DNA of 64,000 nt from NCBI GenBank assembly GCA_010015585.1, contig ML975156.1; one strand, 5' to 3'. The position numbers and the translations under genes were made by a program. The notes beneath the pieces are model-generated. The model had not been told where the DNA came from. It did not search any database and saw only the letters and a list, made by a program, of their open reading frames with translations. This stretch comes from Eremomyces bilateralis CBS 781.70. Its lineage: Eukaryota. Of this stretch, positions 20,501 through 48,005 are shown piece by piece (the stretch's first letter is position 1; every line of letters begins with the position of its first letter).

Positions 20501-20518
20501 TGTCATCTTTTTATGACG
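20501..20518. promoter_or_regulatory. Cluster palindrome TGTCA-N8-TGACG (ACAD/esterase divergent promoter)
   Basis: tgtca tcttttta tgacg. Confidence 0.7.
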
Positions 20519-20914
20519 AGCCGCGATTACGGGTTTGGTCGCTTATCCTTTAGCTGCAGGTGCCCCTGTACTAGCTTCCCCACAACGTCACACCAACCCA
20601 TGTACGCGGTACGTACCCCGCAAAACGTCGAGACATGCAAACGAGTAAACAATGAGCAAATCAAATCAAATCTGTACGGAGTATGGATACAACGGGAAAG
20701 ATAAATTCTCACATAGTTAACTTATGGTACACGAACTAAAATACTGAGGACTATAGATATAGACATGGCTCACGATCTGCAACCACGTCGGGTTTCAATT
20801 GAGATTTATTTTCCTTCAATATGCGCTATTTGACCCGTCACGATAAACTTTATACTGTCTGTTCCAAATAGCAGTTGATTGTCTGTTGCCATTCTCACCA
20901 TTCTCGCCGTAACA

Positions 20915-22261
20915 ATGGCAGAATCCCAATACGACCCCAACCCCAACTTCGGCCAATCCGCCTCCCTCTCCGACCGCCTACAATCCGCCTGGCTGCTCCT
21001 CAGTCTCCCCTTTCACCTCACAACTGCAGCAATCACTCGCCCATTCATGAACACCTCTCTTTCCTTCAGGGAGTACATGAGGCGGGCCCTCGTACGCAAG
21101 TACGGCTCCCATCTCCTCCTTCTCCTCCTTCTTTCACTGCGCCAAAACGCGCCTGTTTTAGAGTTGACGTGCCGATCCTAACGTTTGCCTAGCATTCTCC
21201 ACTTCCCTGTGCTGTCCGTGAGCCGAAAAACAGTCAGTCTAGACCCTGTCAAGACATCCCTGCGCTATAAAGCGCTTTTTGATGGCGGGCACCTCAATCA
21301 GCGTATCCAGCGCGCAGACTTCGCTGGAAACTGGGTCTGCAAGGCCAACTTTGACGGCGGAGCCGACGTCGCAAAGTCAGACATCGTAATCTTTTTCATC
21401 CATGGTACGTCCCCTATGGTACCCTCCTCAACCTCTTCTAAGTCCCCACCCCCGCCATTCTAATCCCCAATTTCAGGCGGCGCGTATGTAACCGGCCACC
21501 TACACCAATACATGCCTCTCCTTCTCCGCCTATCCGAGACCATCTCCGCCACCAGGGGCCTTACCGTCTCTATCTTTGCCCTCGACTACTCTCTCGCCCC
21601 CGAACACCCCTTCCCTTGCCAACTTTCCCAAGCTGCAACAGCGTACACGTACCTCACCACTGAACTAAACATTCCCCCCTCTAACATCGTGCTCACGGGC
21701 GACTCCGCGGGGGGTTCGATCGCGCTGTCACTGCTTACACATTTGCGCCAGCCGAATCCCGGGGTGGAAATGGTGCTGCCGAGGGAGGAAAAGCCAAAGG
21801 CACTGTTCTTGCTGAGTCCCTGGGTTAGCCTGGCGAGTGAGAAGGGGTATAAGGAGAAGGAGGCGAGCGATATATTGCATCCCGCGAGTTTGGCGGGGTG
21901 TGTGCGCTACTTGCTGCCTACTCCTGCTGCCGTTGCAGACGCAGCGCCGTATCTTGAGTTCGCCACACCAACGCCTAGTCGCTCGTGCAACTTTAACGAG
22001 TTGTTGCCTGAGCACGTGTGGGTGTCTGCCGGCGAAGACGAGATTTTTCTGCATAATATTACGAGCTTCGTGGATGAAGCCAGGAAGAGTGGGGTTAAGG
22101 TGGAGTACGAGATTGAGAGTGGGAAATTCCATGATTGGCAGCTTTTTGATAGTGTGCAGAATGCTGGGGTGTTTTTGGGGAAGGAGAGGGGGGCGAGAGA
22201 TGAGGGAGAGATGGAGGGCGTGGAGAGGATTGGGAGGGCAGTTGCGGGGGTTTTTGATTGA
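20915..22261 (+). CDS. Alpha/beta hydrolase (HSL-family esterase/lactonase, Say1-like)
   Basis: HGGAY split by an intron, LDYSLAPE..FP, GDSAG nucleophile elbow, LSPW, terminal His in GKFHDW. Confidence 0.9.
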
Positions 22262-22590
22262 GGGGTGTGGATGCGCGGATAGGGATGGAATAGAAAGTTA
22301 GAGGGTGAATAATAACTTATTTGAAAAGGTATGGACGGTTCTGTTTAAATAAACATGGAATACTTCAGACCTGTTAAATGATTGGTGCATAACGTGTCTA
22401 GATTGACTGCAGCTGTAGCCACTACAACTCTTATATGAGACTACACAGCGTGAGTTTATTCTTGCTTGCGACTTTGGAGTAGTCGATGAAATTAAGATCA
22501 AGCGTCAGATTTCCAATCATAACGGCTATGCTAACAATTTCTAAAGATTTACAAAACGAAATAAACCTCTTCAAATCTGCCTCCTTCACT

Positions 22591-24579
22591 CTACAGCTTC
22601 GTCTTCGCGGCGGCCGCCCCCCTCCCCGCCTTCTCCTTCCTGGCGGGCAGCTCACTCCTTTGAATTTTCCCCGTCGGGTTCTTGGGAATCGCATCGATTG
22701 CAAAAACGCCCCCTCTTAGCTTCTTGTACGGGCTCACAATCTTATCCACTGACTCCCGGATGCGTTTCAGCGCCGCTTCACGATCGTTCTGCGCCACGGA
22801 GGACGAGAGCACGACGTAGCCAATTGGAACTTCGGTTTGGCCATCTTCGTGCCAGAGGGCGCAGACGGCTGCTTCTTCGACTTCGGGGTGCGAGGCGAGG
22901 AGGTCTTCGAGTTCGGCGGGGGCGACTTGCATGCTGCAACAGTCAGCTATCTGGGCAGCAGATGGTGGATTGTCGGACTTACCCCTTATACTTAATCATC
23001 TCCTTCTTCCGATCCTTAAACCATAAAAACCCATCCTTATCAATTGATAGTGTATCGCCAGTGCGCAGCCAGCCATCATGGAAGGACTCCTGCGTGCTCT
23101 TGGGGTTATTGCGGTAGCCCGCAAACACGGTGGGCGCCTTGATGAGCGCTTCGCCAGGCTCACCTAGCTTGACGTCATTCATGTTGTCGTCAATGATGCG
23201 CATCTTGCTAAGACTGGTGTTAGAGCGGTGTAGTGAGAGACAGGGGAGGGGGAACGTACACGCCTGGGTAGAGCCGTCCTACGCTGCCTGCTTTCTCTGC
23301 TGAGCGCCGGCCGCGGAGCCCAGCGACGGAAACTTCACTCATGCTACGCCAGACGTTAGAAAATGCTTGCAACACTGCAATTGGAGGACAATTTCTGCTT
23401 ACCCGTAACCCTGCGTAATGCTAACCCTTGGCATGATCTGCTGCAGCCTCTGCACAACCTCGACTTGCAGCGCCGCACCAGCGCACATGAGCGTCTTGAC
23501 GGTCGTCAGGTCGAGCTGATCGATGCGCGGGTCCTTGGTAATCGCCACGGCGACTGCGGGAACCATCCTCATGACCGTGCTGCCGACTTTAGAGCAGGAC
23601 TGGATATACTGGTCGTAGACGAATGCCGGAAGGATGGCGATGTAGTTTCCGAGGAAGGCGGGGATGAGAACGCCGCCCAGGAGACCGAATAGGTGTGGGA
23701 CTGCGCGATGTTAGCATGTTAGTCTTGCAGGGTAACGGTTCAATGGGTGTACGGACAGGGACCGAAGAAGACTTCGCGCGAGTCGGCGTTCGCGTCCTCG
23801 GGATTTGCGGTGCGGTTGCTCAATGCATTGGCAATCATTCCGTAGTGGCTCAGGTGTACACCCTTTGGTTTTCCAGACGTCCCGGAGCTGAAAACAACGG
23901 CAGCCGGGAGGGTGCGGTTGTCGATGTTTGACAGGTCGACTGGCGGAATTGGATTTACGGCAGTCGAGCGGAGATACTTGTGTGGGAACTGAGACCGGTT
24001 AGGTTTTGATTTGGTTGGCGTTTGGAGTTGGACTTCTTACGGCAACCGCCGATTGATTGTCAATGTTGATAATTGGTGCCGAAGGAACGGTCGTATGATG
24101 GTGGGCCACTGTCCTCTCAACGACGCCGCGACGATGAGGCTCCACGACAATTAACTTTGCGGCCGCTACTGAAAGATAATGCCCCAGATCATGTTCCGAG
24201 GTTGCAACATTGATTCCGCTGCTCTACATTAGCAAACTTCATTTCGCGACATCACACCTGAAGAAGCTCACATGATCGTTCCACCAAACCACATCACGGC
24301 ATGTGCCAGTAGAATATAATTTGCCGAGTTTGCAGCGTACACAACTACGGCATCGCCCATCTTTAGGTTGAAAGCATGCACCAATTCGGCGGCGAGCTTT
24401 GCGGCATCTCTACGAAGCCCGCCATATGTAATCTTGCTGCCCTTTGGGTCAATGTCCTCGTAGATGACCTTGTCCGGCGAGATATCATCTGGATTGACAT
24501 CGAGCAGGTACTGACCGAGTGATTTGTTGGTTGGGACCAAATATTCGGGATAAATCGAGCTGTAGATTATTGGTGCCAT
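22591..24579 (-). CDS. Acyl/aryl-CoA ligase (4-coumarate-CoA-ligase-like), C-terminal TKL
   Basis: FSSGTSGKPKGV, GWLRTGD, DRKKEMIKYKG, QVAPAELE, IPKNPTGKIQR; many introns. Confidence 0.92.
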
Positions 24580-24887
24580 GATGTGTGGACGTGTGGTTCT
24601 GTCTGGATGTGCGGAGCAAGGCGAAAAGAAATCAACAACGCAGACAACACTTCAACTCAATATTTTAAAGTAGTGCAGCAGCGCGTTAAGAGCCATGACG
24701 GTAATTGGGCGACATTACATAGTCGCCTCTCCAAGCAGCCGAGACGAACATAATCCCTAGTCAGAAATATCATATCACGGCATCATGGTATAAATGGCAA
24801 CTTGTGCCGTGAACTGCGGTCGTAGTTGCTGGAATGAGTGTAGCATGAGGAGCAAAGTACTAGTATAGACATTGACGCTAGAAAGGA

Positions 24888-24905
24888 AGTCATCCATTTC
24901 TGACA
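24888..24905. promoter_or_regulatory. Cluster palindrome AGTCA-N8-TGACA (CoA ligase promoter)
   Basis: agtca tccatttc tgaca. Confidence 0.7.
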
Positions 24906-25129
24906 AAATGAGACCGGCAAGTAGGGTACAGGTATGGTGTACATACACGTTAAACCGGAGCAGGACTAACTTAGAGCACTAATTAGTGCTAACTAGTTAG
25001 AGGTGATAAACTGAGGTAGATTGTGGGGAAAGTACCTCGAATAGAAAGTCTGGGGAATATGCAGGGTTAGCGCCTTGGCGGTGACCAGCGCTAGCGCATC
25101 GTAAACGCTAACTAACTTAGCACGCTAAC

Positions 25130-25174
25130 TAACGTAATCCACCACCGAGTTGCGAATACCACCGAGCTGCGAAC
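25130..25174 (+). mobile_element. Orphan pogo/Fot1-type terminal inverted repeat
   Basis: TA|ACGTAATCC followed by tandem ACCACCGAGYTGCGAA units, the layout typical of Fot1/Tan1-type ends; no partner end found. Confidence 0.5.
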
Positions 25175-25258
25175 TTCGAATCTCACCAGAATCAGGATAT
25201 TTCATATCCCGATATCTCAACAACAACATGATAATAAAATCTAAAAGTTGATAGATAG

Positions 25259-25304
25259 ACTTTACCTAACTTAGTTGGCTTAACTTAGTTAAGTTAGGTA
25301 AAGT
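25259..25304. repeat. 15-bp perfect inverted repeat
   Basis: actttacctaactta (25259-25273) and taagttaggtaaagt (25290-25304), 16-nt spacer. Confidence 0.8.
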
Positions 25305-25410
25305 AATGTACGGGGCAACTATAGAGTCAAAGAATACTTTTTGGGGAGGTGGATGGGGCGGTTTTGGACTTCCAACTCTCTGTTTCAGTTTTTCTACCTT
25401 CACGACTTCG

Positions 25411-25455
25411 ATGCCTCCATGCTAATTTCGGAAGCGTGATGATGTTAAACACTAT
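25411..25455 (+). repeat. Direct repeat copy A (partner 27605-27649)
   Basis: 45 bp with 4 mismatches, all G/A transitions; weaker similarity extends ~60 bp upstream in both copies. Confidence 0.85.
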
Positions 25456-25908
25456 GGGTCTGCAGCGGAGTCTCCCTCTGTTTTCTCATATAATGGACAA
25501 TGTTTATGTGTTATGATCTGGTATCAGGGATACAACACATGGGTTTAGAACTCTTGGAGCAGAGTGTGCAGTCAAGGAGGCACGCAAGTGAGTGAGTGCA
25601 GGCTTTGCTCAGTTATATACACATAGCTGCCCAGCTCCCATTGTCCTGGTCCTGATCGCCTCTGATCATTCTGATCGATCCGATCATTGTGATCATTGTG
25701 ATCATCGACCTGGTGATGTCCTAACACAGCGGCGCCGATTTACATCGAGCTACGTCCAGATTGTCTGTCTTTGTAACTATCGTAGAATCTGATAATAACC
25801 GAAGGATGAACAGCGAGCAGTGCAATCTATTTGTTAGGTGACTGGATGCATATAAGCAGGATATCAAGAGGATAAATTGTGCAACCGAAAAGACCCTTGA
25901 GCAGCCCT

Positions 25909-26982
25909 TCACCCCTTGCCGGCAGCTTGTGTCCTTACAATAACTAGCCAGATTGTTTGCGCAGATAAATTCAGTGGCAAAACCTTTGCTGAGCTACCTT
26001 CTGCGCTCGAGCTAGCCTCTCCACCTGAGGCTGAGGCAGCAGGCTCGTCCGACTCTTTCTTCACGTCTGTAGGAATTTCAGCGGGAAATACGGGCATTAT
26101 CCGTGGCTCTTCGTCGAGTCGTTCGCCTTGGATGTCAACATCTTCGAGAATATCCCTTAGTGCTCTCAGCTGGATACCACCGCTGGCAGACTGCGAGTTA
26201 ACCGTGTTAAGCACCTGTGCAACTGACACCCCAACCAGGTTACAAAGCTCTTCAGTAGTCATCAAAGATAATTGCAGCCCTCTGGAATATAGCCAGTCTT
26301 TATTTGCCGCCGCCGCGTACGCCTCCGCTCGGCCTCGGGGTGTTTGCGGGTTCGCTGCTGTGGTAATCGCGTTACCAGGAAGCGATAGAACCGAGCCAAC
26401 TAGACGAGTAGCAGTGCCCACAGTCAATCTAACTGCTCCACCAATGGCACCTCCAACGACGCTGAGGATATTTCCCTTTTTCGCATGCTTGCCAAGGTCC
26501 TTGACTATTGGTTTGGCGTGATTTACGGTATCTTTGCAGAACTGCTGAGGCACCTTTCCGAGCCCAGCAGCGATATCACCAGCATGGCTGATGGCTCGCT
26601 TCCCGACACGCGCAGTCAAGAATGCGGATATTGTATCCACAAAAGAGTACCAAGTCATCGCTGGGATGCCATGCCTTAACAGCGACGGAGGATAAGCTGC
26701 GAGAAACGGTGATGCCGGATCGGGATATCTCTGGGGTATCGCAATTGGTCTGCGACCGGTGGGAGGAGGTGTATTACCAAGAGGTAGATTTGTAGATGGG
26801 AAGGTGAACGGAGAAGAGACTGTCGGTCCTAGTGGTGCTGTCGATGGCCCATCATTTGATATATTTGCGCTTGGGGATGGACTTTCCACGGTTTCCTGGT
26901 ATGTTGGTAGCTGAGAGTCGTGTTCCTCTTTTCCGCGTGCGACATGCTTGACACCATTGCCGTCATGGCTCATTCCGCCCAT
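25909..26982 (-). CDS. Uncharacterised fungal protein (357 aa, intronless)
   Basis: Long ATG ORF with RPIAIPQ..PFLAAYPPSL..GI motif and Gly/Ala-rich zipper-like centre; resembles BuaE-type proteins from memory only. Confidence 0.75.
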   Translation of the reverse strand: MGGMSHDGNGVKHVARGKEEHDSQLPTYQETVESPSPSANISNDGPSTAPLGPTVSSPFTFPSTNLPLGNTPPPTGRRPIAIPQRYPDPASPFLAAYPPSLLRHGIPAMTWYSFVDTISAFLTARVGKRAISHAGDIAAGLGKVPQQFCKDTVNHAKPIVKDLGKHAKKGNILSVVGGAIGGAVRLTVGTATRLVGSVLSLPGNAITTAANPQTPRGRAEAYAAAANKDWLYSRGLQLSLMTTEELCNLVGVSVAQVLNTVNSQSASGGIQLRALRDILEDVDIQGERLDEEPRIMPVFPAEIPTDVKKESDEPAASASGGEASSSAEGSSAKVLPLNLSAQTIWLVIVRTQAAGKG

Positions 26983-27604
26983 GCTGGCATATAATAGTGG
27001 CCGTGAAGATGAGGTGAAGACTCTAGAACTGTTTACTGTAGATAAAAAGCCGTTCGTGAGGTTGGATTAGTTGCCCGCTGTCAAAGTATAAGTTCTCCAC
27101 GCTTTACATACTGCAGCGATGGCCTGTAAAGGTTGTGAGGAGCCATGAGTATACGTAGTAAGCTTCGTCATTCCCGACTACGGAGGCGCAGCAGATCTGC
27201 TAAGCCCCACGCTAATCCTCTCTCTTCTAATTACATGTACTATCCGTGCCCATATCTGTCGCCCCACACCGTCCTACGTACGTAACTAGTATATGAAAAC
27301 GGATAAACAGAATTACCCGACATGCCAGCGCTAAACTATACATGAATTTGGTAGCACACAGTCTACGGAGTAAATGTGTGTGCTACCGAAATTGCCTCGC
27401 CGTTTTCTGCGGACTTTCCGCCTAGGCGAAACGCCTTTGTTTCGTTATCGGCAGTGCCCAAAACTCTCTGCTACGGTGCCAAGACCCTGCGGGGGCTCAC
27501 CACGCCGGATCCTTGCTCTAACTACCGTAATTAGTCCAAACTGGGAGGGATCCGATTTTGGATTCCATCTCCCAAGTTTTGGTATTTCGACCTTCGCAAC
27601 TGCT

Positions 27605-27649
27605 ATGCCTCCATGCTAATTTCGAAAGCATGATGGTGTTAAACGCTAT
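27605..27649 (+). repeat. Direct repeat copy B (partner 25411-25455)
   Basis: atgcctccatgctaatttcgaaagcatgatggtgttaaacgctat. Confidence 0.85.
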
Positions 27650-27669
27650 ATAAGATCTTAGCGCGACTA

Positions 27670-27947
27670 TGTTATGGTCCCGGGCCTGTGGCCTGGGCCT
27701 TTGAGTATGGCTGACGCCACAGGGATGTGGCTAGTGGATGGCATGGAGGATTATCAAGGAGATAGTCATATAGAAGCTATGTTAGGACGGAGCTGTGTTA
27801 AGGAGCTGTGTTGAGCTGTGTTAGGATAGCAGAGAGAAGAGTTTATACCTCGCGCACAAAGGCGCTGGGAGATTTCTTCCTTCTCTCTCTTCAGTTTAGA
27901 TTAATGGAACTTGGTAATCGCAGACCTTGCGCATCCAAACCGTGTCA
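27670..27947. mobile_element. Probable solo LTR (278 bp)
   Basis: Starts TGTTATGG, ends CCGTGTCA; flanking 5-mers GACTA / GGCTG differ only by two G/A transitions; internal GAGCTGTGTT repeats. Confidence 0.5.
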
Positions 27948-27996
27948 GGCTGTCAGCTACGCCTAGTTGAGAGATTATTTTCCACCATTGCTAGCC

Positions 27997-28048
27997 GGGG
28001 GGAAAATCTCACAGGGGGGGAAATCTCAAATACGGGGGGGAAATCTCA
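27997..28048 (+). repeat. Three copies of G6-7 AAATCTCA, likely a DNA-transposon end
   Basis: ggggggaaaatctca, gggggggaaatctca, gggggggaaatctca in close tandem. Confidence 0.65.
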
Positions 28049-28469
28049 CCAGCTTTGCACGTTGCAAAGGTTGTGTTCACCCCAAGGCCTACTTATCATC
28101 CCCTCACACAGCGGCTTGTATTTTAGATCTTCTTTCCTCCTTTGTAGATTGATTCTCGTATATCACGAATCACAGAGTTTGACCTCATCCTTTCGTGCCC
28201 TGATACTCTTATACGATAATATAGTTAATTGTTTATGTATTGTACATATAAGAGTCTTGGGCTGTACGCCCAGACTATTGGTTACGAACTATCGGCTTTA
28301 GAGGCCTCCAACCAAAGTATTCGGGAAGGTGCAGAGGATGGCAAACGTGCATTTAGAACTTCGGGAGGAGAGGCCTTTTTCTCTTCTTCTTCTTTTCTCC
28401 AGTAATTCGATAACGTCCCTACCATTCATAATCCTCATTTATTGTGAACCCTCACAGTACAGAGTATAA

Positions 28470-29321
28470 TCATAGATTAGAAGAGACCCACTGTGGCTTC
28501 TTCTTTGCTGCAAATGCTGCCAGACCAATTCTAGCATTCTCGCCCCTCATCAGCTTCTCCGCCCACCGATCGCCAGTAAGCTGCGTGGCTCTCTCCACGC
28601 TGGCCGTCTCCCAAGCCTCACGGAGTCCCTGCCGGGTGACAAACGTCGCATCCGGAGAGATATCAGCTATATGTCTCGCCAATTTCAGTGCTTCCTCCAC
28701 GACAGACTCGGGCGTCTGCGCAATCACGTTGACCAAGTGAAACCCCTTTGCCTCCTGTGCTGACAGCCTGCGTCCCGTAAGCCCGATCTCAGAGCCGATT
28801 TGCAGACCACAGTTGCGTACCACTCGCGCGAGTCCTCCAGCTCCGGCATATAGGCCGACAGTTGACTCGGGCAGACCAAACGATGCCTTTGGGGATGCGA
28901 CGACAAGATCGCAGTTTAAGCAGATCTCGAACCCCCCTCCAAGCGCAAAGCCATTGATAGCAGCGATGACCGGCTTTTTCCCAAGCCGTCTGCTCAGAGC
29001 TGCAAAGCCTCCTGGTGGGTGCGAGGATCGAGAGACGTTGGTGGATTCTGCTCGCTTCTTGTTCTGCTCGATGAGGTCTTGGCCGGCGCAGAAGGCCTTC
29101 GTCCCGGATCCGGTGATAATGGCGACGCGTAGGTTGGGCTCGTTGTCGAACCACTGGAAGAGGTCGTGCGCTTCCCAGTGTCCGGCTATCGGGATCGAGT
29201 TCATGGCTTGGGCCCTATCGATGGTGACGAGAAGGACATAAGGACTCGGGTACAAAAGCAAGAATGTCGTGGTTTGAGGAGGAAGCGTAGTAAAGTTCTT
29301 GGCTCCACAGTCTTCCGCCAT
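28470..29321 (-). CDS. Enoyl-CoA hydratase/crotonase family protein (SidH/CaiD-like), C-terminal SNL
   Basis: AFCAGQDL, KPVIAAINGFALGGGFE, FGLPE (both catalytic Glu present); intronless 283 aa. Confidence 0.93.
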   Translation of the reverse strand: MAEDCGAKNFTTLPPQTTTFLLLYPSPYVLLVTIDRAQAMNSIPIAGHWEAHDLFQWFDNEPNLRVAIITGSGTKAFCAGQDLIEQNKKRAESTNVSRSSHPPGGFAALSRRLGKKPVIAAINGFALGGGFEICLNCDLVVASPKASFGLPESTVGLYAGAGGLARVVRNCGLQIGSEIGLTGRRLSAQEAKGFHLVNVIAQTPESVVEEALKLARHIADISPDATFVTRQGLREAWETASVERATQLTGDRWAEKLMRGENARIGLAAFAAKKKPQWVSSNL

Positions 29322-29565
29322 TGTAGAAACGGTGCGATGTGTGATCTGTTGTGGTTTACAGTTTGTTACTGTTGTTGAGGGTGGCTCTTTGTATTAAAGA
29401 GGCCTTAAAAACTGGGCAATGCATATATAAATTTGAGGATAAATATGTGACAGGTTTGGGCCCATGAAAATATGCGCCTACATAAAGCGCAGTCGATAAT
29501 AAATGGCTTGGTAGACCACATCTTGTAAATGCCGCAGAAATGTTGCAGAAGTAATAAGATCTGTC

Positions 29566-29583
29566 TGTCACGTATTGATGACA
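29566..29583. promoter_or_regulatory. Cluster palindrome TGTCA-N8-TGACA (crotonase promoter)
   Basis: tgtca cgtattga tgaca. Confidence 0.7.
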
Positions 29584-30176
29584 TTGAGCCTCTTTTCAAC
29601 TAGTTAGATGGTCTTTGGAAAACCGATAGCACAGGCGGTAGGGTGCCTAGCCAACGGGCGGGTACTAGGCGCGGTAAATCGAATATCCGGCGCCCTTGGT
29701 TCGAATTAGGCTCTGTGAGACCTAGTTAAATTAAATGCCTAGTTAGTTGATAGGCAGTCTAGTGCCCGTGGTAGGGCTCTCGAAACCGCTTATATAATCA
29801 AGCCACTCTCTCGGCGAGCAAGAACTTTTGAAATGGAGTGTGCCAAAACTTTATTGACGCACCTCCGTACTCTATCTACAAGCTCACATCATGTCCCAAT
29901 TACTAGCTTTATTCCTTGATGCTAGACTAGCTGAAAATAAGCTTTCCTGCGTAAAGTGCCCGGATTCAGCTACTCTCAATTTTTCTTTGCTGGTCTATCG
30001 AGATCCTCTTCACTTAACCAAACGGTTGTATATTTTATTGGTATACCTGTGATAGAGAAATTAAAAGATGCTTAGGAATTTCAACAAGCTGCGAGCAAAG
30101 GGCACACTTACCCATATCAAAAGGAAAAACGCAGGACCACAATGTATATCTCCTCAAAAGTAGTGTGACAGAGAAA

Positions 30177-30218
30177 ACGTAATCTGCCAGCGAGTCGCCC
30201 AAACCACTGAGTCGCTCA
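30177..30218 (+). mobile_element. Degenerate orphan pogo-type TIR
   Basis: ACGTAATC followed by tandem GAGTCGC-containing units; expected TA target not preserved. Confidence 0.35.
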
Positions 30219-30859
30219 TCTCAACCATGGCCTACTATTATAACTAGAATATCTCGATACCCACGGAAGCTTTTTATTAGTTAGAAAGTAGGCTAGGATC
30301 AATGATTTCTGGTATAGCTATTTGAGGCATTAAATAGGTCTTAACTCGATGTTGTAAGATTATGAAGATGTGCAAGAGTTAAGATGTGTCGCAAGGTGCC
30401 CTGTTGATTCCAATGCCACGCAGCATTCCATTCGCAGCCCATTACCCCTGAGCTAAGCCTAATCAGGACTCCTCAGTCTTGATTTATGTCCCAGTTATCT
30501 TCAACTGTTTTGCTAGTTAGCTAGATCTCTTTTGGGAGAGAATGGGAATAATAGTCAATACCAATTTGCGTTGTGACTCTGGAGTAACTGAGCTTAAGCT
30601 GCGAACGTGCTTAATCATCACCCACGCGTAATGCGACAAGATGTCTCTAGTATTTCGATAGGACTATTTTCTAAAGTTTACAATTGTCACGGCTGCACTT
30701 TTCGTTGCTTTCTAGCCTTGATGGATGGATCCCTTGGCCTGGCGAGAGGTGAAGTATGTTGTGTAACCGTTGATAGCAAATACAAGCATTAGGTTCTTAG
30801 ATATTACATTTGGATTATCTCATTACGACCTTTATAAGAACATGCTCATAACTCGCCGA

Positions 30860-32057
30860 TCACAGCTTCGACTTATTGCCACTATCTAGCGTCTGCGCAC
30901 CCTCTGCAAGCAACTCCGCGGCTTCCTCAACCATCTCATCCACAATCGTCTTTGCCCTCTTCCTTTCCTTCACCTCCGCCGCCACCTTCCCCATAATCAT
31001 TGGAAACGCATTTTCAGTGAGCTCGGCATCATCAGGAAACTTGTCAAAGTCGTTCTGAAGAGGTATAATACCCTTCGCTTGCAGCGCCTGCATTTCATCC
31101 TGCCGCTTGCTAATCCACCGCTCGATGTACGGCGTCGACCGGACGTGCATCGGGCGCCCGGAGAAGATGGTTGTCCGCACAATTTGCCCATGGTCGGCGG
31201 AGCGCACGGCCTCTTGGTGCTCTGCGCCCGATCCGGACTCCTCACAGAGGATGAACCGCGTGCCGACCCAGATGGCCTGGGCGCCGAGCATCATCGCGCC
31301 TGCGAGGGAATGGCCATTGTGCATGCCGCCGCCGCCGACGAGCTGGATCTCCTTGTCGGTGAACTTGCTGATCTGGCCTTTGATGATCTTCTTCACAGCG
31401 GGGATGAGGATGACTGTTGGAACATCGCCTGTGTGGCCCCCTGCCTCACCGCCGGCGGCACAGAGGAGGTCGGCACCGAGATCGATGGCCCGCTGCGCGT
31501 GCTTGGGATGGCCTATCATGTTCATGTATAAGACGCCTCCGGCATGGAGGCGGTCGACGACTGCTTGAGAAGGTATACCGACAGCGCAGACGAAGAGTTT
31601 TGCTCCACCTTCAACGATGACGTCTATTAAGTCCATGATCCTGCCTTTGTTATAGTCATAGCTATTGAGAGCAAGGTTAGCTTGTTTTCTGAAAGTGGTT
31701 CCCGTAGGAGACCTGCGACCTACTTTGTTGCTCTTGCGCCGTTGCCGACCTTTGGAATCAGCAGATCCACCCCAAACGGCGCATTCTTGTCGACAAGATA
31801 TGACTTCAGTTCTGCGATTGACTCTCGCAGGAGCTGGGGCGTGTACATCCCACCGCCGATAACACCGAGCCCTCCGGCATTTGTGACTGCGGCGGCAAGC
31901 TTGGGTGAAGCGGTCTTGTTCATTCCGGCGAGCAGGACAGGATGCTTAATACCTAGAAGGTCTGTCGCTCCGGTGCGGATCTTCTCTGCGTCGGTACGTG
32001 AGCTGCATAGTCCATTGAAGGTATGAGGAGAGGAGAAGAGTTACGTGGCGATGCCAT
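30860..32057 (-). CDS. Nitronate monooxygenase / FabK-like FMN flavoprotein with PTS1 (SKL)
   Basis: HPVLLAGM, AAAVTNAGGLGVIG, PFGVDLLIP, GGEAGGHTG, WVGTRF; ends KSKL; two introns. Confidence 0.92.
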
Positions 32058-32313: not shown

Positions 32314-32331
32314 TGTCAGAAAAAGATGACC
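32314..32331. promoter_or_regulatory. Cluster palindrome TGTCA-N8-TGACC (NMO/ALDH divergent promoter)
   Basis: tgtca gaaaaaga tgacc. Confidence 0.7.
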
Positions 32332-32784: not shown

Positions 32785-32802
32785 TGTCAGACATTTCCGA
32801 CA
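32785..32802. promoter_or_regulatory. Cluster palindrome variant TGTCA-N8-CGACA (ALDH-proximal)
   Basis: tgtca gacatttc cgaca, one mismatch. Confidence 0.55.
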
Positions 32803-32937: not shown

Positions 32938-34516
32938 ATGGCCGCCAAGCTCATCACAAACGATGTCCCATCAAAGCTATTCCTAAACAACGAGGTCAGG
33001 ATCTTAAACCATACACATGGATACCTAACTGACCAAACTTCCAGTGGGTGGCCGGCTCCGGCCCCTCTCTCACAATCACCAACCCCAAAGACTCCAGCAT
33101 CGTCACCTCTCTCCAGGAAGCCAGTCCGTCCGACCTAGACATAGCCGTCCAGTACGCCACCGAAGCGTTTGAGTCGGGTCCCTGGTCGACCTTCCCCGCC
33201 CTCAAGCGCGCGGAATGCATGAACAAACTCGCCGACCTGCTCGAGGCGCATGTGGAGGAGATCGCCTATTTGGAGAGCGTGGCCTCTGGGCGCCTGCTGT
33301 CCATGGTGAGGTATGAGATCCCGCTTGTTGCGCGGGTATTCAGGTGTAAGTCTGCGTGCACTCGCCTCCCTGCGGTGACGTGAGGTTGGAAATGTGCTGA
33401 CAATACGTAGACTATGCGGGCTGGGCCGACAAAATAAAAGGCGACGCCTACCCCCCCGACGACGGACACTTCAAGTTCGTCTCCCACGTTCCCCTCGGCG
33501 TCTGTGCCGGCATAACCGCCTGGAACGCCTCGCTCCACTTCCTCGCCTGGAAATCCGCCCCAGCGCTCGCAACCGGTAACACCGTCATCATCAAGCCGTC
33601 TGAGAAATCCCCGCTCGGGTCCCTGGCCATCGGCTATTTGATCGCCGCCGCCGGATTCCCGCCCGGCGTTTTCCAGATCCTGCCGGGTGGTGGCGCGCTC
33701 GGGGCGGCGATAAGCGGACATATGCGGATTGCGAAGGTGAGCTTTACGGGGAGTACGGCAACGGGGGTGAAGATCCAGGAGGCAGCGGCAAGGAGCAATC
33801 TCAAGCGTGTCACTCTTGAGCTGGGAGGCAAAAGCCCGTCCATTGTCTTTGACGATGCTGACATTCCATCGGCAGTCCAGTGGGCGGTCAGAGGCATTAC
33901 TATCAACTCGGGGCAGGTCTGTGCTGCTTCTTCGCGTTTGTATGTTCACGAAAGTATTATGGAGCCCTTTATGGGGGCCCTGAAAGATGCATTTGAAGGG
34001 ATTGGAAATGCCCTTGGTGAGGATCCACAACAGCTCGCAACAACGTTTGGTCCGGTGATCGACGAGGAGCAGTTCAAGAAGATTTGGGAGTATATTGAAG
34101 CTGGTAAGAAGTCGAGTGCTCAGCTACTCACAGGAGGATCGAAGTATGACGGAAACGGAACATATATCGCGCCAACAATCTTTGTCAACCCACCCGAGGA
34201 CTCGGTGATCTACAAGGAGGAGATCTTCGGCCCAGTTCTGTGCGCCAAATCTTTCAAGACGGAAGAGGAGGTGCTCAAGTGGGCGAATGACACGCAGTAC
34301 GGACTTGCCGCTGCGATATTCACAAAAGAGCTTTCCAGGGCTTTGAGGGTGAGCTCGAAGCTTCAAGCTGGCACTGTTTCGGTCAATTGCGCTTTGTCAG
34401 TTGGTCCTCAGGTTCCGATGGGAGGAATGAAAATGAGCGGGAGTGGGCGCGAGCTTGGAGAATATGCTCTGAGGCATTACACTGAGCCGAAAACCACTTG
34501 GATCAGGTTAGAATAA
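32938..34516 (+). CDS. NAD(P)-dependent aldehyde dehydrogenase
   Basis: AWN, IKPSEKSP, SFTGST, TLELGGKSP, NSGQVC (catalytic Cys), EEIFGPV, GGMKMSGSGRE; two introns. Confidence 0.95.
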
Positions 34517-37585: not shown

Positions 37586-37616
37586 GATCAAAGGTAGAGC
37601 GTGACACTGATAAATC

Positions 37617-39098
37617 TCAAAACTTGTACACCAAGCGGCCATTAACTTTGCCTTTCATCATGTCCTCAACCCCTTCGTTGATCTGGCTAATGTCGCGCAA
37701 CTACACGTGTTAGAATTGAATTCTCAAGTTATTAGGCGGTACAACATACTTGGTACACTGGTTTGATACCTGCCGAAGCAGCCAAGGTGAGTGACTTGCT
37801 CAAATCGTCCTTCGTACCCTGGTTCGTAGCTTTGAAACGGTCAACGGTTGTGCACTTTGAAGAGTAAAGCCGTTGGCTATCTTACCAATGAGGGAGAGGT
37901 CGTTCAGGATCATGTTCAAAATGTTAACAGCTACAGGGCCGTTTGGCGCACCAATGGCAATAACCTTTCCATGTTTTGCCGTAATCTTGAAGGCCAGATC
38001 GTAGGCTGGAGCTGCGCCGCTGACCACGACTGTGCAGAGTGTCTTCTCGAACGTGGCTGCGTCACCGGTCATCGAGTTGAAGACCTCCTCAGCTCCCGAG
38101 TCTTTCGCCAGTTGCAGCTTGTCGTTCGCAATATCAACTGTTGGGCCGGTTAAACGTGACGGAATAGCTCTGGAGAAGGATACACATACAAGCGTGGACC
38201 CGGTAGCCCATGGCCTTGGCGTACATGATCGCAAGGTGACCTAGGGAAATATGAGCATGCATGTTCATTATATCAACGGCTAGACATCATTCACCAACAC
38301 CCCCGCTTCCAACGATGTTGAGCAGCGTGCCTCCGGTCTGGAACTGGGAGACCTTCTTCAGGGCACCATATGCTGTTACACCAGCGCACAGAAGCGGTGC
38401 AGCACTAATGCGGAATTCAGTCTCTGGCTCTTTCTGCTCATGTTGAAGGATCCTCAAACCTCTCGTCCGGCAGCCCGTCTGGAATTTTGACCGTAGAAAG
38501 CGGATCCGCGACACAATATTCTGTAAAGCCACCCTGCATACCGTTAAAGCCGACAGCCGTTTTGCCAGAGCAGAATCGATGCTGCCCGCTCAGGCATTCG
38601 CTGCAGTCCACTATCACAGAGTTACAAAGTGTCATAGTTTGGGTAATGGAGGCCACGACGTACGGCAAGTATTGCTCGCTGGCATGAAACCGACTCTGTC
38701 CCCAACGGCAAACCCTCTTACGCCCTCTCCTAGCTCTGCGACCGTGCCGACAGCTAAATGAGACATACATCAGAAGTCTGTGACTCAAGATATGGCCGTC
38801 CCGCAGAGGGGTCGTGGCTTACGTTCGTGACCAGGGCAATACGGGAGGGCTCCGCCGACGTGTCCCTGGATACCGGAAATGTCGGACATGCAGAGCGAGC
38901 AGCAGCTGTTCTTGACCAAGATCTGGTTGGCACCTGGTTTGAGGATTGGCAGATCGTCTCTGATCACGAGAGGTTTGTTGTACTGGGAGATTGTCGTCAG
39001 TAAAGTGCAAGATGTTGCCGTGAGATAAACTCAAGGCGAGAGCAGATGCTACCTACCTCGACTACGGTTGCGCCCCTCATTGTAGTTTTGGTTGCCAT
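37617..39098 (-). CDS. Zinc-dependent medium-chain alcohol dehydrogenase
   Basis: SLCMSD, PGHE, CSECLSG..FC, APLLCAGVTAYGALK, GSGGVG, C-terminal GKVNGRLVYKF; many introns. Confidence 0.9.
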
Positions 39099-39566
39099 TG
39101 TGTTGAGTTGGATCTTTGTGATAGAGAGAGTTTGGGGAAAATTTTGGGATATTTCGGATAATGAGATAGAGTCAAACAAAACCAACAAGACATGAATAGC
39201 TATCAAGGTTTCGGGCAGCTGAATATTCCCTCTAGATATTGTTTTTCTGCCTTGGCTTCCCTATTCTGAGCTAATCGGGGTTTGATGTCGTCTCACAATG
39301 ATCTAGAGCACTTTGACCAGATTTTTAAGGAATTGTGGTAGTGCTGCTTATAATGAGAAGCGCGCTGTCAGACAATGCTCACTTGAATGTGCATTGGGCC
39401 ATCGACTTATGTTCAAATGCTCGAGTTGTAACACCAAAAACTCTATCTCTGCGATTGCAGGGATATGGGATTCTCTAGCAAATCCAAAAGGGGTTACTGC
39501 TTGCTAGTCTTGCGCTAGCGCAATATGGCTCATGGGGCAATCTCTCACGCTTCCCGCAAGGCGGCA

Positions 39567-39584
39567 TGTCATGCTTTCATGACA
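39567..39584. promoter_or_regulatory. Cluster palindrome TGTCA-N8-TGACA (ADH/thiolase divergent promoter)
   Basis: tgtca tgctttca tgaca. Confidence 0.7.
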
Positions 39585-39893: not shown

Positions 39894-41804
39894 ATGGCGC
39901 AACCCGCACTAATTCCTGTTATTGTTGGCGTGGGTGATATCAAAAACAAAAAGTTAACAGTTGAGGATGCGATCGAGCCGATGCAACTAATGCGCCTGGC
40001 AACCATACGTGCTCTTGAAGACACCGGTCTCTCATCCGAAGCTTCGAAACAGTTTCTGGCAAGTGTTGACAGTGTCAGTGTCGTTGCAACATGGACTTGG
40101 AACTATCCTGACCTGCCTGCCCTTCTCTCAGAGAAACTGGGAATAAGCCCTTCTCACAAGACTCTGAGTCCTCACGGCGGAAACTATCCAGTAAGTCTTA
40201 TAGATGAAGCTGCGAGACGGGTTTCGTTGGGACAGAGCCAAGCCTGTATTGTAACCGGTGGAGAGGCCTTGGCTTCCGGTGAGTAGCTGGATGTGATTGA
40301 CTTCTCATCTTAAGAAGCACATTCTAAACCTTTGGCGTTATAGTAAATGCATGTGCTGCCGCGAAGAAATCACCTCCGAGATGGACACCAAGCGATCCAA
40401 AAACGAAAAGTGTGTCTACATCTAAACTGCCAGACACCCAGCAGAGTAGGTCTCAAATGCTAAGCTTCAAAGAAATTTGTGTTCCTAATCTCGTATCATA
40501 GCTCCCGGCTCCGTCCACTCCATTGGGCTACCAATCCACATCTATCCATTATACGAAAACGGATTCCGAGCAAAGCGACGCCAAACACCCGAAGAGAATA
40601 ATGCAGAGTCAGCAAACCTGTACGCAGAATTTGCCCAAGTTGCAGAGCAGAATCCCATGGCTTGGAACTATGGACAACCTGCCAAATCAGCAAAAGAGAT
40701 TGGCACTGTCACCAAAAAGAACAGACTGATATGCTCCCCTTGTAAGGCTCAACTATGGCCCTCACAGGTGATTGCCGCTGACTCCAGTCTCAGATCCGCT
40801 ACTTATGAACGCCTTCAACGCTGTCAACCTTGCTGGAGCATGCCTTTTGACCTCCACCAAATTCGCGACAGAGTTTGGTATTTCTGAGGACAAATGGATC
40901 TATCCGCTGGGCGGCGCAGGGGCAGAAGATAGTGAGAACTGTGTGTTGCGTTTACTTCATCCTTGTACACTCTGTGAGGCCAGGGCTAACCACATGGAAT
41001 CAGTTTGGGAGCGTCTCAACTACTACTCTAGCCCCGCTCTCTCAAACGCACTGGATGCGGCATTAAGAGTTTGTAAACTATCAAAGGACGACATTGAAGT
41101 CTTTGACTTCTATTCATGCTTCCCCATAGTTCCTAAACTCGCATGCCATCATCTCAGTTTGCCTATTGCCAATTCTCCTAAGCCGGTAACCTTTCTGGGT
41201 GGACTAACATCGTTCGGTGGTGCTGGTAACAATTACTCTATGCACGTAAGTTACAATCAGCGGACAATCCCAAAGGCATTCCGCATGATATTGACCATAC
41301 AGTGCAGTCTGTGATCGAAATGGCGCGCGAGTTGAGAAAGGGAGCGCGGCAGTACGGCCTCGTATTGGCAAATGGGGGGATACTCACGAAACACAATGTG
41401 CTCTGCCTTTCCCGCAAACCCCGCAAGGATGGCTCTCGTTATCCCGCAACGAACCCTCTAGCACAGTGGAAACTGGAAGCTGTCATTCCACCAATCGCAG
41501 AGCAGGCAGATGGAAAGGCAATACTTGAGGTACGTGATGAGAGTAGTCTGGATCAATACAATGATTCGAATTGACACGCTTCTAGACATATACCGTCGAG
41601 TTCACCAGGGAAGGGAAGCCGACTCGCGGTCATATTGTAGGATTATTGCAGGGTGGACGTCGCTTTGTGGCCCATCATGGGGACGAAGGTACCCTGCAGC
41701 AGCTTGCAAGTCAAACGAAAGAACAAGTTGGAAGGAATGGGTGGGTGAGGGCTGGAGGCAATGGAAAGAATTACTTTGTGTTTGAAGAAGCGGGACGGCT
41801 GTGA
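39894..41804 (+). CDS. Thiolase-like protein (TLP1-type)
   Basis: PVIVGVG, HGGNYP, TGGEALAS, YPLYEN, FDFYSCFPIVPK, GGLTSFGGAGNNYSMH, LANGG; ends EAGRL; multiple introns. Confidence 0.88.
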
Positions 41805-42258: not shown

Positions 42259-42280
42259 AAGTCCCAGTAAACTGGGACTT
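42259..42280. repeat. 10-bp perfect hairpin between convergent genes
   Basis: aagtcccagt aa actgggactt. Confidence 0.6.
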
Positions 42281-42352
42281 TACTTTTGGCCCATAATACA
42301 ATCGTGGGTCCCTTGATATCAGCAATTCTGTTAGTTCCGGCATAGAAGAACG

Positions 42353-44398: not shown

Positions 44399-44620
44399 GA
44401 TTACAAGACAAGATCAAGAGTATATTGCTTAAGAGTGAGAGACGGCGACCAAGTGTTCGTCGATAGTGCTTCTTTACCCCAGATTTGATGTACAGCTAGG
44501 TTAAGTACTCCATACGACTCCACACGTTTCGTTTGGCCAAGCGTCTCCTCCTATCGCTTACCCCTCATTTCCCCAGATTTTCATCCAGCAATTTGGGTGG
44601 ATCGGGGTCGAGAGATGGGC

Positions 44621-44638
44621 TGTCAGGTAACAATGACG
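44621..44638. promoter_or_regulatory. Cluster palindrome TGTCA-N8-TGACG (MFS promoter)
   Basis: tgtca ggtaacaa tgacg. Confidence 0.7.
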
Positions 44639-45821
44639 GAAATGATACTTTCGGTTTTGGACCTTTTCCGTTGACCCGCCACATGGACTAAAGTCTTGGA
44701 GTCCAGCCCTACTTGAAGCCACTAACAGCCCCTCTCCTCTCCACAAATCTGGGCATTATCTGGAGTCAAGAGCGCGAATACAGCGATCGAGTAGCATTAC
44801 CTTCAGTGATGGAGACGAAAGTCTCACCGGTGACCGGTCTTTAGTGACATGCACAGACGATGACCCTTTCCACGTATCGCCTTACCGGTTAGAGTAGTGC
44901 GGAGGTATGACCATGTGGGGGATTCATAGTTTTGGGCTAGTTTAACTGTTTAATGTCCTTTTGCGTGCGGCTAGGCCGCGTGAACAGTAACATGATTAAG
45001 GGGATGAAGAGTGCAGCTCCTGATTTTCAAAAAACAGCCTCAGATCCAACATGCTATCCCTGACATGGCCCACTTAATTTATTCCATTTTAGCGCCGGAT
45101 GGCGCTTAATGGCGCACACTTAGCGTACTAGTAAAGCCCAATCACGAGGCGAACTAAAAATTACTCAGCTTTACGGTCTTTACACCCAAACGCAGCTTCG
45201 ATCCCAGGAGCATCGAAGCAATCAATAATCATGTCGTCTCAACGTATTGTCTAATGTCGTCTATACCGCTCCCATCCGCCCCAGTGGCCTCCTCTATCTC
45301 TGATGATACATCCGACGATGAGCTTGCCACCGAATTTATATCAAGAGCTCGATCCGACGCGACATCCGCTGCAGAAGTGGACCCAGACGTACCAGAGTCC
45401 CCATTACAGCCACCTCCAGGCTCTTCCGCTGGATATCTTAATTGCCCAATTGGGCGCCATGGAGAGGCCTCTTATATAGCTATTGATCCGGCTAGTAAGA
45501 GGCCTCTGGGTCAGACTGGAACTCCATTTCAGAAGATGGAGGGATACGTCTCTTATTACCATAATCCGGAGGCGCTGCTTGATCTCCCGATTAGGATTCC
45601 AGGCCCCATTGATCCTACAGACACCCAAAATGTTCTATGTGGAAATCCTAGCTGTATAGGCTGCGGCATTTCCCATAGTGATGGCCAGTACCTAGATCCA
45701 TTGCTTCATAATCGCCGTCCATCATCCTTCAAATAGCTTATCGAGTGATGGGATCTCCCGCTGGTACTCTTCTCGCAGATATTCCATCAGCGCGTACCGA
45801 CACGGTAAAATTAAAAATATC

Positions 45822-47649
45822 ATGGAGTTGCACCGGAAATTTAAGCTTCCTTACCATCGCCTCCGAACTCGCATCCACGGTCGTCCTTTAAGGAAAACTC
45901 TACGAACTTTTGATATTACTGAAGATGATGAAGAGAGACGAATCCTTAAAGCCGTTGATATATACTGCAGCGGTGATTGCAAAAATATCACAGAGTTGCA
46001 CCAACAAATTGAAGTTCCTTACCATCGCCTTCGAGGGCGCATCAACGGTCGTGCCTCCAATAAAACCCCACGAACTACGAACCGAGCCCTTGATAAAACA
46101 CAGGAGGATGCACTTAAACTATGGATTAAGCAGCTTGATGAAGCTGGCCGACCACCAACCAGTGAAATGGTAACAAACTGTGCAAATGCCATCCTCTGTC
46201 GAAGCCATGATCCTGATCCTGAGACGCCCACACCCGCACCAACTGTCTCTAAGATGTGGACCTACCGCTTTCTCAAACGACTTCCTTCTGAATATGAGCG
46301 AGTTCAGCAGAAAACAAAGGATCCAAAGCGTATACAAGCAGAAGATCTTGGGATTGTGCAGAGCTTCTATGACCACTGGAAAGTCATTATTGAGAGCCAT
46401 CGCATACGCCCATGAAATATATACAACATGGATGAGACAGGCTTTGCAATTGGTCAAGGAAAGGTTGAGAAGGTCATTACTGCCTTTCCAGAAAAAAATG
46501 CAGTCCTTGGAAGTGCCATGTCACGCAAACTGGTCACTGTCATTGAGTGTATTTCTGCTGAGGGTAAACCTACCAATCCCTTTCTTGTTCTACCAGGAAA
46601 GAACCATCTTGAAGATTGGTACAAGGATTGTGGGCTTCCAGATAACTGGATAATTCTGGTCTCTCCTAATGGGTACACCAGTGATGAAGGAGGCTTTGAC
46701 TGGGTTCATCATTTTGAGATTAAGACGCGTCCAGCAACCTCCTGGGAATGGAGACTTCTCTTGCTTGACAACCATGGTTCACACCTGACATATGACTTTC
46801 TCAAGTTCTATGAAGATCACCGGACCATTCCCTTTTTCCTCCCTCCACATATGACACATTATCTTCAGCCTTTGGATGGAGTTCCTTACAGCCTTACCTG
46901 GGATACGAGCAAAAGCCTTCACACCACGCGTTTTACGAGCTGGCCGGTCAAAGCGAGGAGTATGGCCAATTAAACCTGATCTTGTGATTAAAGAGTTGGA
47001 GAAAATCTGTGCGGATGAGGGGCCTGAACTTCAGGATTTTAATGGCTCTGAAGCCGAGTCAGAAGAGCCCCAATCTACCTCTTCTTCACAACTTTCCTCA
47101 CCAAAGTCGATTCGAAAACTCCGCCGCAGCATTGAGAAAGTGAAAAAGAACCTTAATGAGCTGGGTACCTTGCTTGAGGAGGCCTCTCCGTCGCTCAACA
47201 AGCGAATAAATAAGGTGTTCAGTGGCAGCCTTGTTCAAGCCGAGCTTGGCGCGCAGCGAGGAGATGATTTGGATCGCTACTTGGAGGCTAGCCACAAGCG
47301 CAAACGAAAAGATACTAGACGGCAGGTGAAAGCAGCAGGTCCTCTTTATGTTAAGGATGCAAATCGCGAGATTGAAGAGCGGAGGGCGAAGGAAATGAAG
47401 ACTGAGTGGGCGCAACGTGAAAAGCGCCGTGCCCTTGATGCGAAGAAGACGCGTGAGGAGCAAGGAAACAGAGAAGCGGACAGAATTATTGGTGATATTG
47501 CTGCTCTGGCTACTGGACAGGAGGAAAATCCTCTTTATTTTGTAGATACTCAAGGCACGTTGCAGTAATTAATCATTTTGTTGCTTTGTATAGTCCATTT
47601 TGCGTCTTTGCGTGGTTTGCGTCTTTGCGTGGTTTGCCCACCCCGGGTA
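45822..47649 (+). mobile_element. Defective pogo/Fot1 (Tc1-mariner superfamily) DDE transposon
   Basis: CENP-B-type HTH, YNMDETGF, TVIECISA, LLLLDNHGSH, PPHMTHYLQPLD; in-frame TGA at 46413-46415 and a frameshift near 46885; right end with a 17-bp tandem repeat and ..GGG|TA; left TIR not found. Confidence 0.9.
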
Positions 47650-47987
47650 GGTGGGTGCGTAGGGCACGGGTAGTTAACTATCTACTTTTGTAGTTATGAG
47701 ATTCTGGTGCTAATCGAATGTGACGGTATGATTACCCGGAATTGGGCTTAGTGCGACCGGGGGCACAGCCAAAGCGGCCATGCCAAGTGGTATGAAAAGC
47801 CTGTAGCGGATGCTGTAAATGGTCAATGTTTGAATAGGCTCCACATGTACATATACGGCGTCCCAATCTGATCTTCACACTAATTAGTGCGTCCACACAG
47901 TTTGCGGAGGCCTGGAGAAATATACGGGGAATCCATGGGATGCTGGCCTCGAGATGCATGGCTTGGCAACCACCACGCGTCGGTGCT

Positions 47988-48005
47988 TGTCATTAAAATC
48001 TGACA
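47988..48005. promoter_or_regulatory. Cluster palindrome TGTCA-N8-TGACA (BVMO promoter)
   Basis: tgtca ttaaaatc tgaca. Confidence 0.7.

Follow-up and report, generated by a model that had tools for sequence, protein, structure and literature searches.

A GTCA-N8-TGAC palindrome stands once upstream of each structural gene or divergent gene pair of a putative catabolic cluster in Eremomyces bilateralis

Shared promoter motifs wire fungal gene clusters to their pathway regulators, and to our knowledge very few such motifs are known outside the Zn2Cys6 family. We likewise know of no full operator for the DUF3425 bZIP-like proteins, a family that is listed in several inventories of fungal bZIP proteins. 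Here, we analyzed the palindrome GTCANNNNNNNNTGAC (GTCA-N8-TGAC) in a stretch of 64,000 nucleotides of contig ML975156.1 from Eremomyces bilateralis CBS 781.70 (assembly GCA_010015585.1), hereafter called the window, where it precedes the structural genes of a cluster that also encodes a bZIP-like/DUF3425 protein. The closest described systems are those of A7370 and XanC. A7370 of Curvularia lunata, a bZIP protein with a DUF3425 domain that falls outside the known bZIP clades, binds ACGGCTGAC, as demonstrated by electrophoretic mobility shift assay (EMSA) and chromatin immunoprecipitation sequencing (ChIP-seq) (PMC13113314). The A7370 site is one 9-mer in the single promoter of another regulator and is bound with a dissociation constant of about 10 uM, and the accessible part of the report mentions no palindrome or spacing rule (PMC13113314). 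XanC of Aspergillus fumigatus, described as an atypical bZIP protein without the usual zipper leucines, acts via AGTCAGCA, which is found in the promoters of the xan structural genes and not in that of xanC itself (PMC8406171).

The element in our window resembles these sites in several respects and differs in its architecture. The A7370 and XanC sites both hold the core GTCAG/CTGAC, the form taken by 4 of the 14 half-sites here, and the A7370 site ends in CTGAC. The candidate regulator of the present cluster has, like A7370, a basic region and a DUF3425 domain, and both proteins come from Dothideomycetes; however, A7370 was reported to bind a single 9-mer, whereas the element here is a spaced palindrome. 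As in the XanC and AflR clusters, a short motif precedes the structural genes and the regulator lies within the cluster, and, as with XanC, the motif is absent from the regulator's own promoter. The XanC motif is a single 8-mer, in contrast to the strict 16-bp palindrome observed here, whose spacer is 8 bp long and has an A/T center, and the AflR motif, TCG-N5-CGA, differs in being a CG-type Zn2Cys6 palindrome. We presume that XanC also carries a DUF3425 domain. Searches of the literature on fungi, limited to the parts of the reports that were available, found neither GTCA-N8-TGAC nor TGTCA-N8-TGACA, and the DUF3425 reports examined did not contain this palindrome in their accessible parts. 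Judging by titles and abstracts, the literature on E. bilateralis held nothing on the cluster, and no described fungal cluster with the same gene set was found.

A pattern scan of the window returned seven exact matches, starting at 20502, 24889, 29567, 32315, 39568, 44622, and 47989. These are the same seven places listed in the original prediction, which had been made from the sequence alone and gave coordinates 1 lower since it counted the flanking base. In 100 dinucleotide-preserving shuffles of the window the pattern occurred 1.26 times on average and 4 times at most, and none of the 100 contained seven or more. The same half-sites with spacers of 0 to 7, 9 to 12, or 14 to 20 nucleotides gave zero or one match per spacer, a spacer of 13 gave five scattered matches, and the reversed arrangement TGAC-Nk-GTCA gave zero to three matches per spacer. 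The motif had been picked after inspection of the sequence, and we therefore enumerated all 5,376 inverted 4-mer dyads with spacers of 0 to 20. The ten structural genes have seven upstream regions, 5,988 bp in total, which were delimited independently of the motif. GTCA-N8-TGAC was found in all seven regions, with exactly one site in each; three divergent gene pairs have one common site apiece, and the other four genes have a site of their own. The runner-up dyad, TGTC-N10-GACA, covered four regions and represents the same sites with the flanking T and A included, while the best unrelated dyad (ATAA-N17) reached three of the seven. When the enumeration was applied to 500 dinucleotide shuffles, the best dyad covered two regions in 236 of them, three in 255, and four in 9, and never more than four. 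The placement of GTCA-N8-TGAC is non-random. No exact match was present in the 32 kb of the window beyond the cluster, and none lay within the transposon. The suggestion that the motif defines cluster membership holds for the window only, where no sites occur beyond 20.5 to 48 kb. No ungapped 6- to 8-mer common to the seven upstream regions stood out above shuffles, and thus the palindrome is the only candidate shared element.

Near matches were not enriched. Allowing up to one mismatch, the window contained 19 matches against 26.3 expected, 12 of them with one mismatch, and the two one-mismatch sites inside the seven upstream regions (32786 and 39367) correspond to about the chance level. The variant at 32785 that the original prediction had added to its list does exist, with one mismatch, but is compatible with chance. 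Both of these one-mismatch sites (32785-32793 and 39366-39374) start with TGTCAGACA, which could be accidental or mark a variant half-site standing alone.

Within the seven sites (Table 1), the eight core bases, GTCA and TGAC, are invariant. At the center of the spacer, both bases are A or T (all 14 positions), and the fixed 8-nucleotide spacer with an A/T center was borne out. Over the whole spacer, 40 of 56 bases are A or T, compared with a fraction of 0.56 in the upstream regions. The base preceding GTCA is T in 10 of the 14 half-sites, and the base following it is mostly T (9), otherwise G (4) or C (1). The consensus is T-GTCA-(T/G)-NN-WW-NN-(A/C)-TGAC-A. All seven sites can be written as GTCAT-N6-NTGAC, with at least one GTCAT half in each. 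Reverse-complemented, site 4 agrees with site 1 at 15 of 16 bases over core and spacer together. The 200-bp flanks on either side of the sites share only chance words of up to 14 bases and have no match elsewhere in the window; being unrelated and unique, they show that the sites are no repeat copies. The center of the site lies 231 to 400 bp from the nearest ATG on our gene models, of which the hydrolase, ALDH, and ADH starts are the least certain. A distance of 220 to 310 bp had been proposed, and it was found for six of the seven sites; the exception is the site between the NMO and ALDH genes, about 400 bp from the NMO start.

Table 1. Palindromic sites, cluster genes, and other features of the window. 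Distances are from the site center to the start codon.
Feature	Position	Strand	Description
Site 1	20501..20518		TGTCA-TCTTTTTA-TGACG; divergent ACAD/hydrolase region; 302 bp from ACAD ATG 20207, 405 bp from hydrolase ATG 20915
Site 2	24888..24905		AGTCA-TCCATTTC-TGACA; upstream of CoA ligase; 317 bp from ATG 24579
Site 3	29566..29583		TGTCA-CGTATTGA-TGACA; upstream of enoyl-CoA hydratase; 253 bp from ATG 29321
Site 4	32314..32331		TGTCA-GAAAAAGA-TGACC; divergent NMO/ALDH region; 400 bp from NMO ATG 31923, 615 bp from ALDH ATG 32938
One-mismatch variant	32785..32802		TGTCA-GACATTTC-CGACA; significance doubtful
Site 5	39567..39584		TGTCA-TGCTTTCA-TGACA; divergent ADH/TLP1 region; 477 bp from ADH ATG 39098, 318 bp from TLP1 ATG 39894
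Site 6	44621..44638		TGTCA-GGTAACAA-TGACG; upstream of MFS transporter; 231 bp from ATG 44398
Site 7	47988..48005		TGTCA-TTAAAATC-TGACA; upstream of Baeyer-Villiger monooxygenase; 282 bp from ATG 48279
Acyl-CoA dehydrogenase (ACAD)	18575..20207	-	Pfam Acyl-CoA_dh_1, _N, _M; C terminus AKL; site 1, common with hydrolase
Alpha/beta hydrolase, esterase-like	20915..22261	+	Pfam Abhydrolase_3 (2.8e-27); start approximate; site 1, common with ACAD
AMP-binding acyl-CoA ligase	22591..24579	-	Pfam AMP-binding; C terminus TKL; site 2
Enoyl-CoA hydratase (ECH)	28470..29321	-	Pfam ECH_1 (1.4e-46); C terminus SNL; site 3
Nitronate monooxygenase family (NMO)	30860..31923	-	Pfam NMO (4e-28); C terminus SKL; site 4, common with ALDH
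Aldehyde dehydrogenase (ALDH)	32938..34516	+	Pfam Aldedh (4.5e-132); start approximate; site 4, common with NMO
Candidate regulator, bZIP-like/DUF3425, 618 aa	34824..36839	-	RNA-supported introns 34874-34922, 35222-35271, 36407-36466
Zinc-type alcohol dehydrogenase (ADH)	about 37617..39098	-	Pfam ADH_zinc_N, ADH_N; ends from N- and C-terminal open reading frames; site 5, common with TLP1
Thiolase-like protein type 1 (TLP1)	39894..41804	+	PDB 4EGV (E 2.8e-19 and 0.015); Pfam TLP1_add_C (6.9e-17); RNA intron 40742-40793; C terminus GRL; site 5
MFS transporter, TRI12-like, 583 aa	42353..44398	-	Pfam TRI12; five RNA-supported introns; site 6
Flavin Baeyer-Villiger-type monooxygenase (BVMO)	48279..50419	+	Pfam FMO-like; NAD_binding_8 at residues 35-77 from ATG 48279; site 7
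385-aa open reading frame without clear domain	about 25913..26982	-	Weak DUF4646 (E 0.0095); covered by X3 RNA contigs; no palindrome upstream
Decayed pogo/Tc5-type transposase	45158..47565	+	Pfam HTH_Tnp_Tc5, DDE_1; open reading frame pieces in three frames; in-frame stop 46413-46415; no site

In form, the palindrome can be compared with three known classes of operator. Canonical bZIP sites, such as the cyclic AMP response element TGACGTCA and the AP-1/GCN4 site ATGA(C/G)TCAT, consist of abutting, inward-facing half-sites (ATGAC|GTCAT), with ATGAC as the classical half-site of GCN4/ATF. Every site here likewise has ATGAC in one half or both, and 9 of the 14 half-sites read GTCAT; unlike in canonical sites, however, the half-sites face outward and lie 6 to 8 bp apart. 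The inward-facing arrangement TGAC-N0-GTCA was found once in the window, at 23170, inside the span of the CoA ligase gene. A Zn2Cys6 site of the CGG-Nx-CCG type was ruled out, as the half-sites are GTCA and TGAC and no Zn2Cys6 cysteine pattern was found in the six frames of the window. TGTCA-N8-TGACA is also the PpsR/CrtJ operator of purple photosynthetic bacteria, which is bound by a bacterial repressor of the PAS-HTH type. The string TGTCAN8TGACA appears in the accessible part of a report on Congregibacter, a photosynthetic gammaproteobacterium (PMC2654016). This consensus string is identical to the palindrome here. We ruled out a PpsR/CrtJ system, since the locus is eukaryotic and spliced and the targets are beta-oxidation-type genes. 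The open reading frames scanned contained no PAS, HTH_8, or Fis-type HTH domain, and, for a spliced fungal locus without such a protein, the likeness is taken as coincidence or as convergence on a palindrome that suits dimers. In kind, the motif belongs with the pathway-specific motifs in promoters of fungal gene clusters; in form, it is neither a Zn2Cys6 nor a canonical bZIP site.

The window is fungal, with spliced genes and a regulator exon that matches a Dothideomycete protein at 100%. Gene families were assigned by Pfam and PDB sequence searches on exons. Ab initio intron chaining over-extends gene ends; only starts backed by RNA joints or by an alignment to Pfam or PDB were used. Run X3, presumed to be RNA, contains spliced joints ending in GT..AG or CT..AC, which the DNA run X1 does not; its contig depths cannot rank genes. 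ACAD, at 18.6 kb, and BVMO, at 50.4 kb, are the outermost of the ten structural genes. No backbone synthase was found in the window, and the cluster looks catabolic. Five of the enzymes (ACAD, the CoA ligase, ECH, NMO, and TLP1) end in AKL, TKL, SNL, SKL, and GRL, respectively, which resemble type 1 peroxisomal targeting signals (PTS1) and suggest that the pathway is peroxisomal. From the functions of the families, the order of the pathway looks like conversion of a ketone to an ester by BVMO, cleavage by the esterase, oxidation by ADH and ALDH, and activation with CoA. A peroxisomal round of the beta-oxidation type, with ACAD, ECH, TLP1, and NMO, would follow, and the MFS transporter would complete the set.

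The only recognizable DNA-binding protein in the window is the bZIP-like/DUF3425 protein encoded in the middle of the cluster. Its gene is transcribed and spliced in X3, and its long exon is 100% identical to P0001, a 618-aa hypothetical protein of E. bilateralis CBS 781.70; the UniRef name of the protein is BZIP domain-containing protein. The DUF3425 domain (PF11905) scored 43.7 bits, above the gathering cutoff of 27.1. The gene has no palindrome in its own upstream region and thus would not be directly autoregulated. The family of the regulator appears from homology searches to be small: in a search of 5.8 billion proteins, the C-terminal exon had 16 homologues, the best with 53% identity, and the N-terminal 111 residues matched 7 proteins, including the query and proteins from Claussenomyces sp., Sarea resinae, Botryosphaeria dothidea, and Neofusicoccum parvum. 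PF11905 was present in all 16 C-terminal-exon homologues and in all 7 N-terminal ones. The few homologues share two conserved segments, a basic stretch, RINRKR-QNRISQQC-RER, and a second helix, EEN-x-LREALLRMRKK. The AlphaFold2 model had a mean predicted local distance difference test (pLDDT) score of 58.7, with about 63 to 90 in the N-terminal helices, and placed one helix at residues 29 to 74 and, after a short break, another at 81 to 124. Foldseek gave no match to the fold in the PDB at an E value of 0.001 or better, and residues 24 to 138 gave in VIA-align only generic long-helix or helical-hairpin matches, with Z values up to 7.5. A homodimer prediction for two copies of residues 25 to 135 scored 0.18 against a mark of 0.32 and was counted neither way. 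The closest named homologues of the N-terminal part were P0011 (Claussenomyces sp.) and P0019 (Sarea resinae). Both are resin-dwelling fungi, which hints at terpenoid or ketone catabolism.

The palindrome is very probably a functional cis-element that serves the whole cluster. The mechanism that we propose is that one dimeric, sequence-specific protein would bind the seven palindromes as upstream activating (or operator) sites, with each monomer reading one (A/C)TGAC half-site, and that the invariant A/T center would let the DNA narrow or bend between two major-groove contacts 12 bp apart. We give a probability of roughly 0.55 to the reading that the palindrome is the site of a dimeric regulator that would co-regulate the ten genes, with the bZIP-like/DUF3425 protein of the cluster as its most likely identity. 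This protein is favored as the binder because it lies mid-cluster and has no rival among the recognizable DNA-binding proteins of the window, and because the reported sites of two fungal bZIP regulators have the GTCAG/CTGAC core. Several observations limit this reading or weigh against it. By raw count alone, GTCA-N8-TGAC ranked third among the 5,376 dyads (Poisson p of 2.7e-5), and its significance consequently rests on placement and not on count. The two half-sites point outward (GTCAT...ATGAC) with 8 bp between them, an everted arrangement that a canonical bZIP fork cannot span, so that the regulator, if it is the binder, must dimerize differently, possibly via a fold-back second helix or the DUF3425 domain. 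The bZIP_1 domain scored 14.7 bits (E of 0.034), below the cutoff of 27.6 bits. Two loci with relatives of the regulator (37% identity; 1.6 and 6.4 kb), which came from a metagenome scan with the regulator alignment, had no site, but they are distant and short and therefore uninformative. Lastly, site 3 lies within the X3 RNA contig 28163-29667, and the spliced X3 contig of the MFS gene appears to cover site 6 as well and to reach 44699 or further (multiplying the contig depth, 165.5, by the share of the bin that is not intron gives the bin depth, 140.3). The original prediction had the motif in all seven promoter regions of the ten genes; it does occur in all seven upstream regions, but a strict promoter location, upstream of the transcription start, is because of these contigs not established for sites 3 and 6. 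The two sites may lie in long transcribed 5' leaders in the X3 sample, or the contigs may have been extended by read-through or traces of genomic DNA.

The misfit with canonical bZIP geometry and the subthreshold bZIP_1 score would also agree with a real cis-regulatory site that is bound by a regulator encoded elsewhere, with the in-cluster protein acting via another element or indirectly. The five PTS1-like C termini would fit such a broader peroxisomal program, and the regulon could be a wider lipid, peroxisome, or xenobiotic one. We consider this alternative possible but rather unlikely, since a wider regulon is at odds with the 32 kb beyond the cluster that hold no site, since a regulator in the cluster with nothing to bind there would be odd and the searches for shared motifs yielded no other, and since the core shared with the A7370 and XanC sites points back to a bZIP protein. 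Moreover, the motif is unlike CCTCGG, the site of the fungal fatty-acid regulator. The RNA contigs over sites 3 and 6 bear on a different alternative, in which GUCA and UGAC would pair as a hairpin in the 5' leaders of the mRNAs and affect stability or translation. A stem of 4 to 7 bp is possible at every site, but pairing is weak (-3.0 to -10.2 kcal/mol), and the z scores of the stems against shuffles range from +0.10 to -3.0 and fall below -2 at only 2 of the 7 sites. The stem sequence is, moreover, invariant instead of covarying, three sites stand between divergent genes, and the invariant A/T center would fall in the loop; an RNA-level element is thus very improbable. We give still less credit to the sites being footprints or terminal fragments of mobile elements or a chance pattern recognized after the fact. 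High-copy repeats and a decayed transposase do occur in the region, and the rank by raw count is modest, the top dyad being ACCA-N16-TGGT, with nine matches mostly within coding sequence. That dyad looks like a chance outlier, and both it and GTCA-N13-TGAC were put down to chance, as their matches are scattered and many are coding. Against a mobile or accidental origin stand the unrelated flanks, unique in the window, the coverage of seven of seven regions compared with a maximum of four in 500 shuffles, and the lack of any terminal inverted repeat that holds the motif.

As a tentative extension drawn from the modeled helices, DUF3425 bZIP-like proteins might have an undescribed binding geometry, in which a loop and a long fold-back second helix come after the basic helix, the dimer lies over the center of the site, and the basic regions contact everted ATGAC half-sites 8 bp apart across an obligatory A/T center. 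If so, the window would contain the first full operator for a widespread and barely studied regulator family, the single 8- to 9-mers of XanC and A7370 would be half-operators, and the regulon would amount to a Baeyer-Villiger/beta-oxidation pathway of the peroxisome, with ketones or terpenoids as possible substrates. The set of sites is unusually clean, with one exact site per upstream region, a fixed spacer, and an invariant center, and the seven sites are ready probes for EMSA or DAP-seq (the sequencing of affinity-purified DNA) that allow a test of whether bZIP-like proteins read everted, spaced half-sites. The motif also provides a sequence rule with which to delimit the cluster and find further regulon members genome-wide, and it marks an uncharacterized ten-gene pathway, comprising a monooxygenase, an esterase, dehydrogenases, and CoA-dependent chain shortening, as a single regulatory unit.

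Two further features lie within the cluster. The transposase sits between the MFS and BVMO genes, each of which retains its own palindrome, and the transposon presumably split one divergent MFS/BVMO intergenic region with two sites; no convincing terminal inverted repeats of the transposon were found, and it is not part of the regulon. The 385-aa gene is bracketed by high-copy repeats and is probably outside the regulon. When the relative X4 was compared at 80% likeness or more, only this gene, which lies there on a 21.6-kb contig (169 differences and 5 gaps over 1,040 bp), and small pieces of repeat between 27.4 and 27.65 kb were matched, which is no proof that X4 is without the cluster. High-copy repeats were found at 25100-25400, 27370-28300, and 29700-30650; they stand on both sides of the 385-aa gene and upstream of the hydratase gene. 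In the DNA run X1 the summed contig depth was 24,765 in the bin 27368-28034, compared with about 240 for single-copy sequence, and joints such as 25394 to 27594, which skips 2,199 nucleotides, were seen in DNA and RNA runs alike. To the left of the cluster, between it and a purine-cytosine permease gene, the stretch 14000-18000 has a GC content of 0.444, compared with about 0.50 to 0.55 elsewhere, and no Pfam-recognizable genes, and this A+T-richer stretch may be the left cluster border. To the right of BVMO, the stretch 50500-55700 contains several open reading frames of 110 to 210 aa with no Pfam match at an E value of 0.05 or better, and ABC transporter and SLAC1-type channel genes follow.

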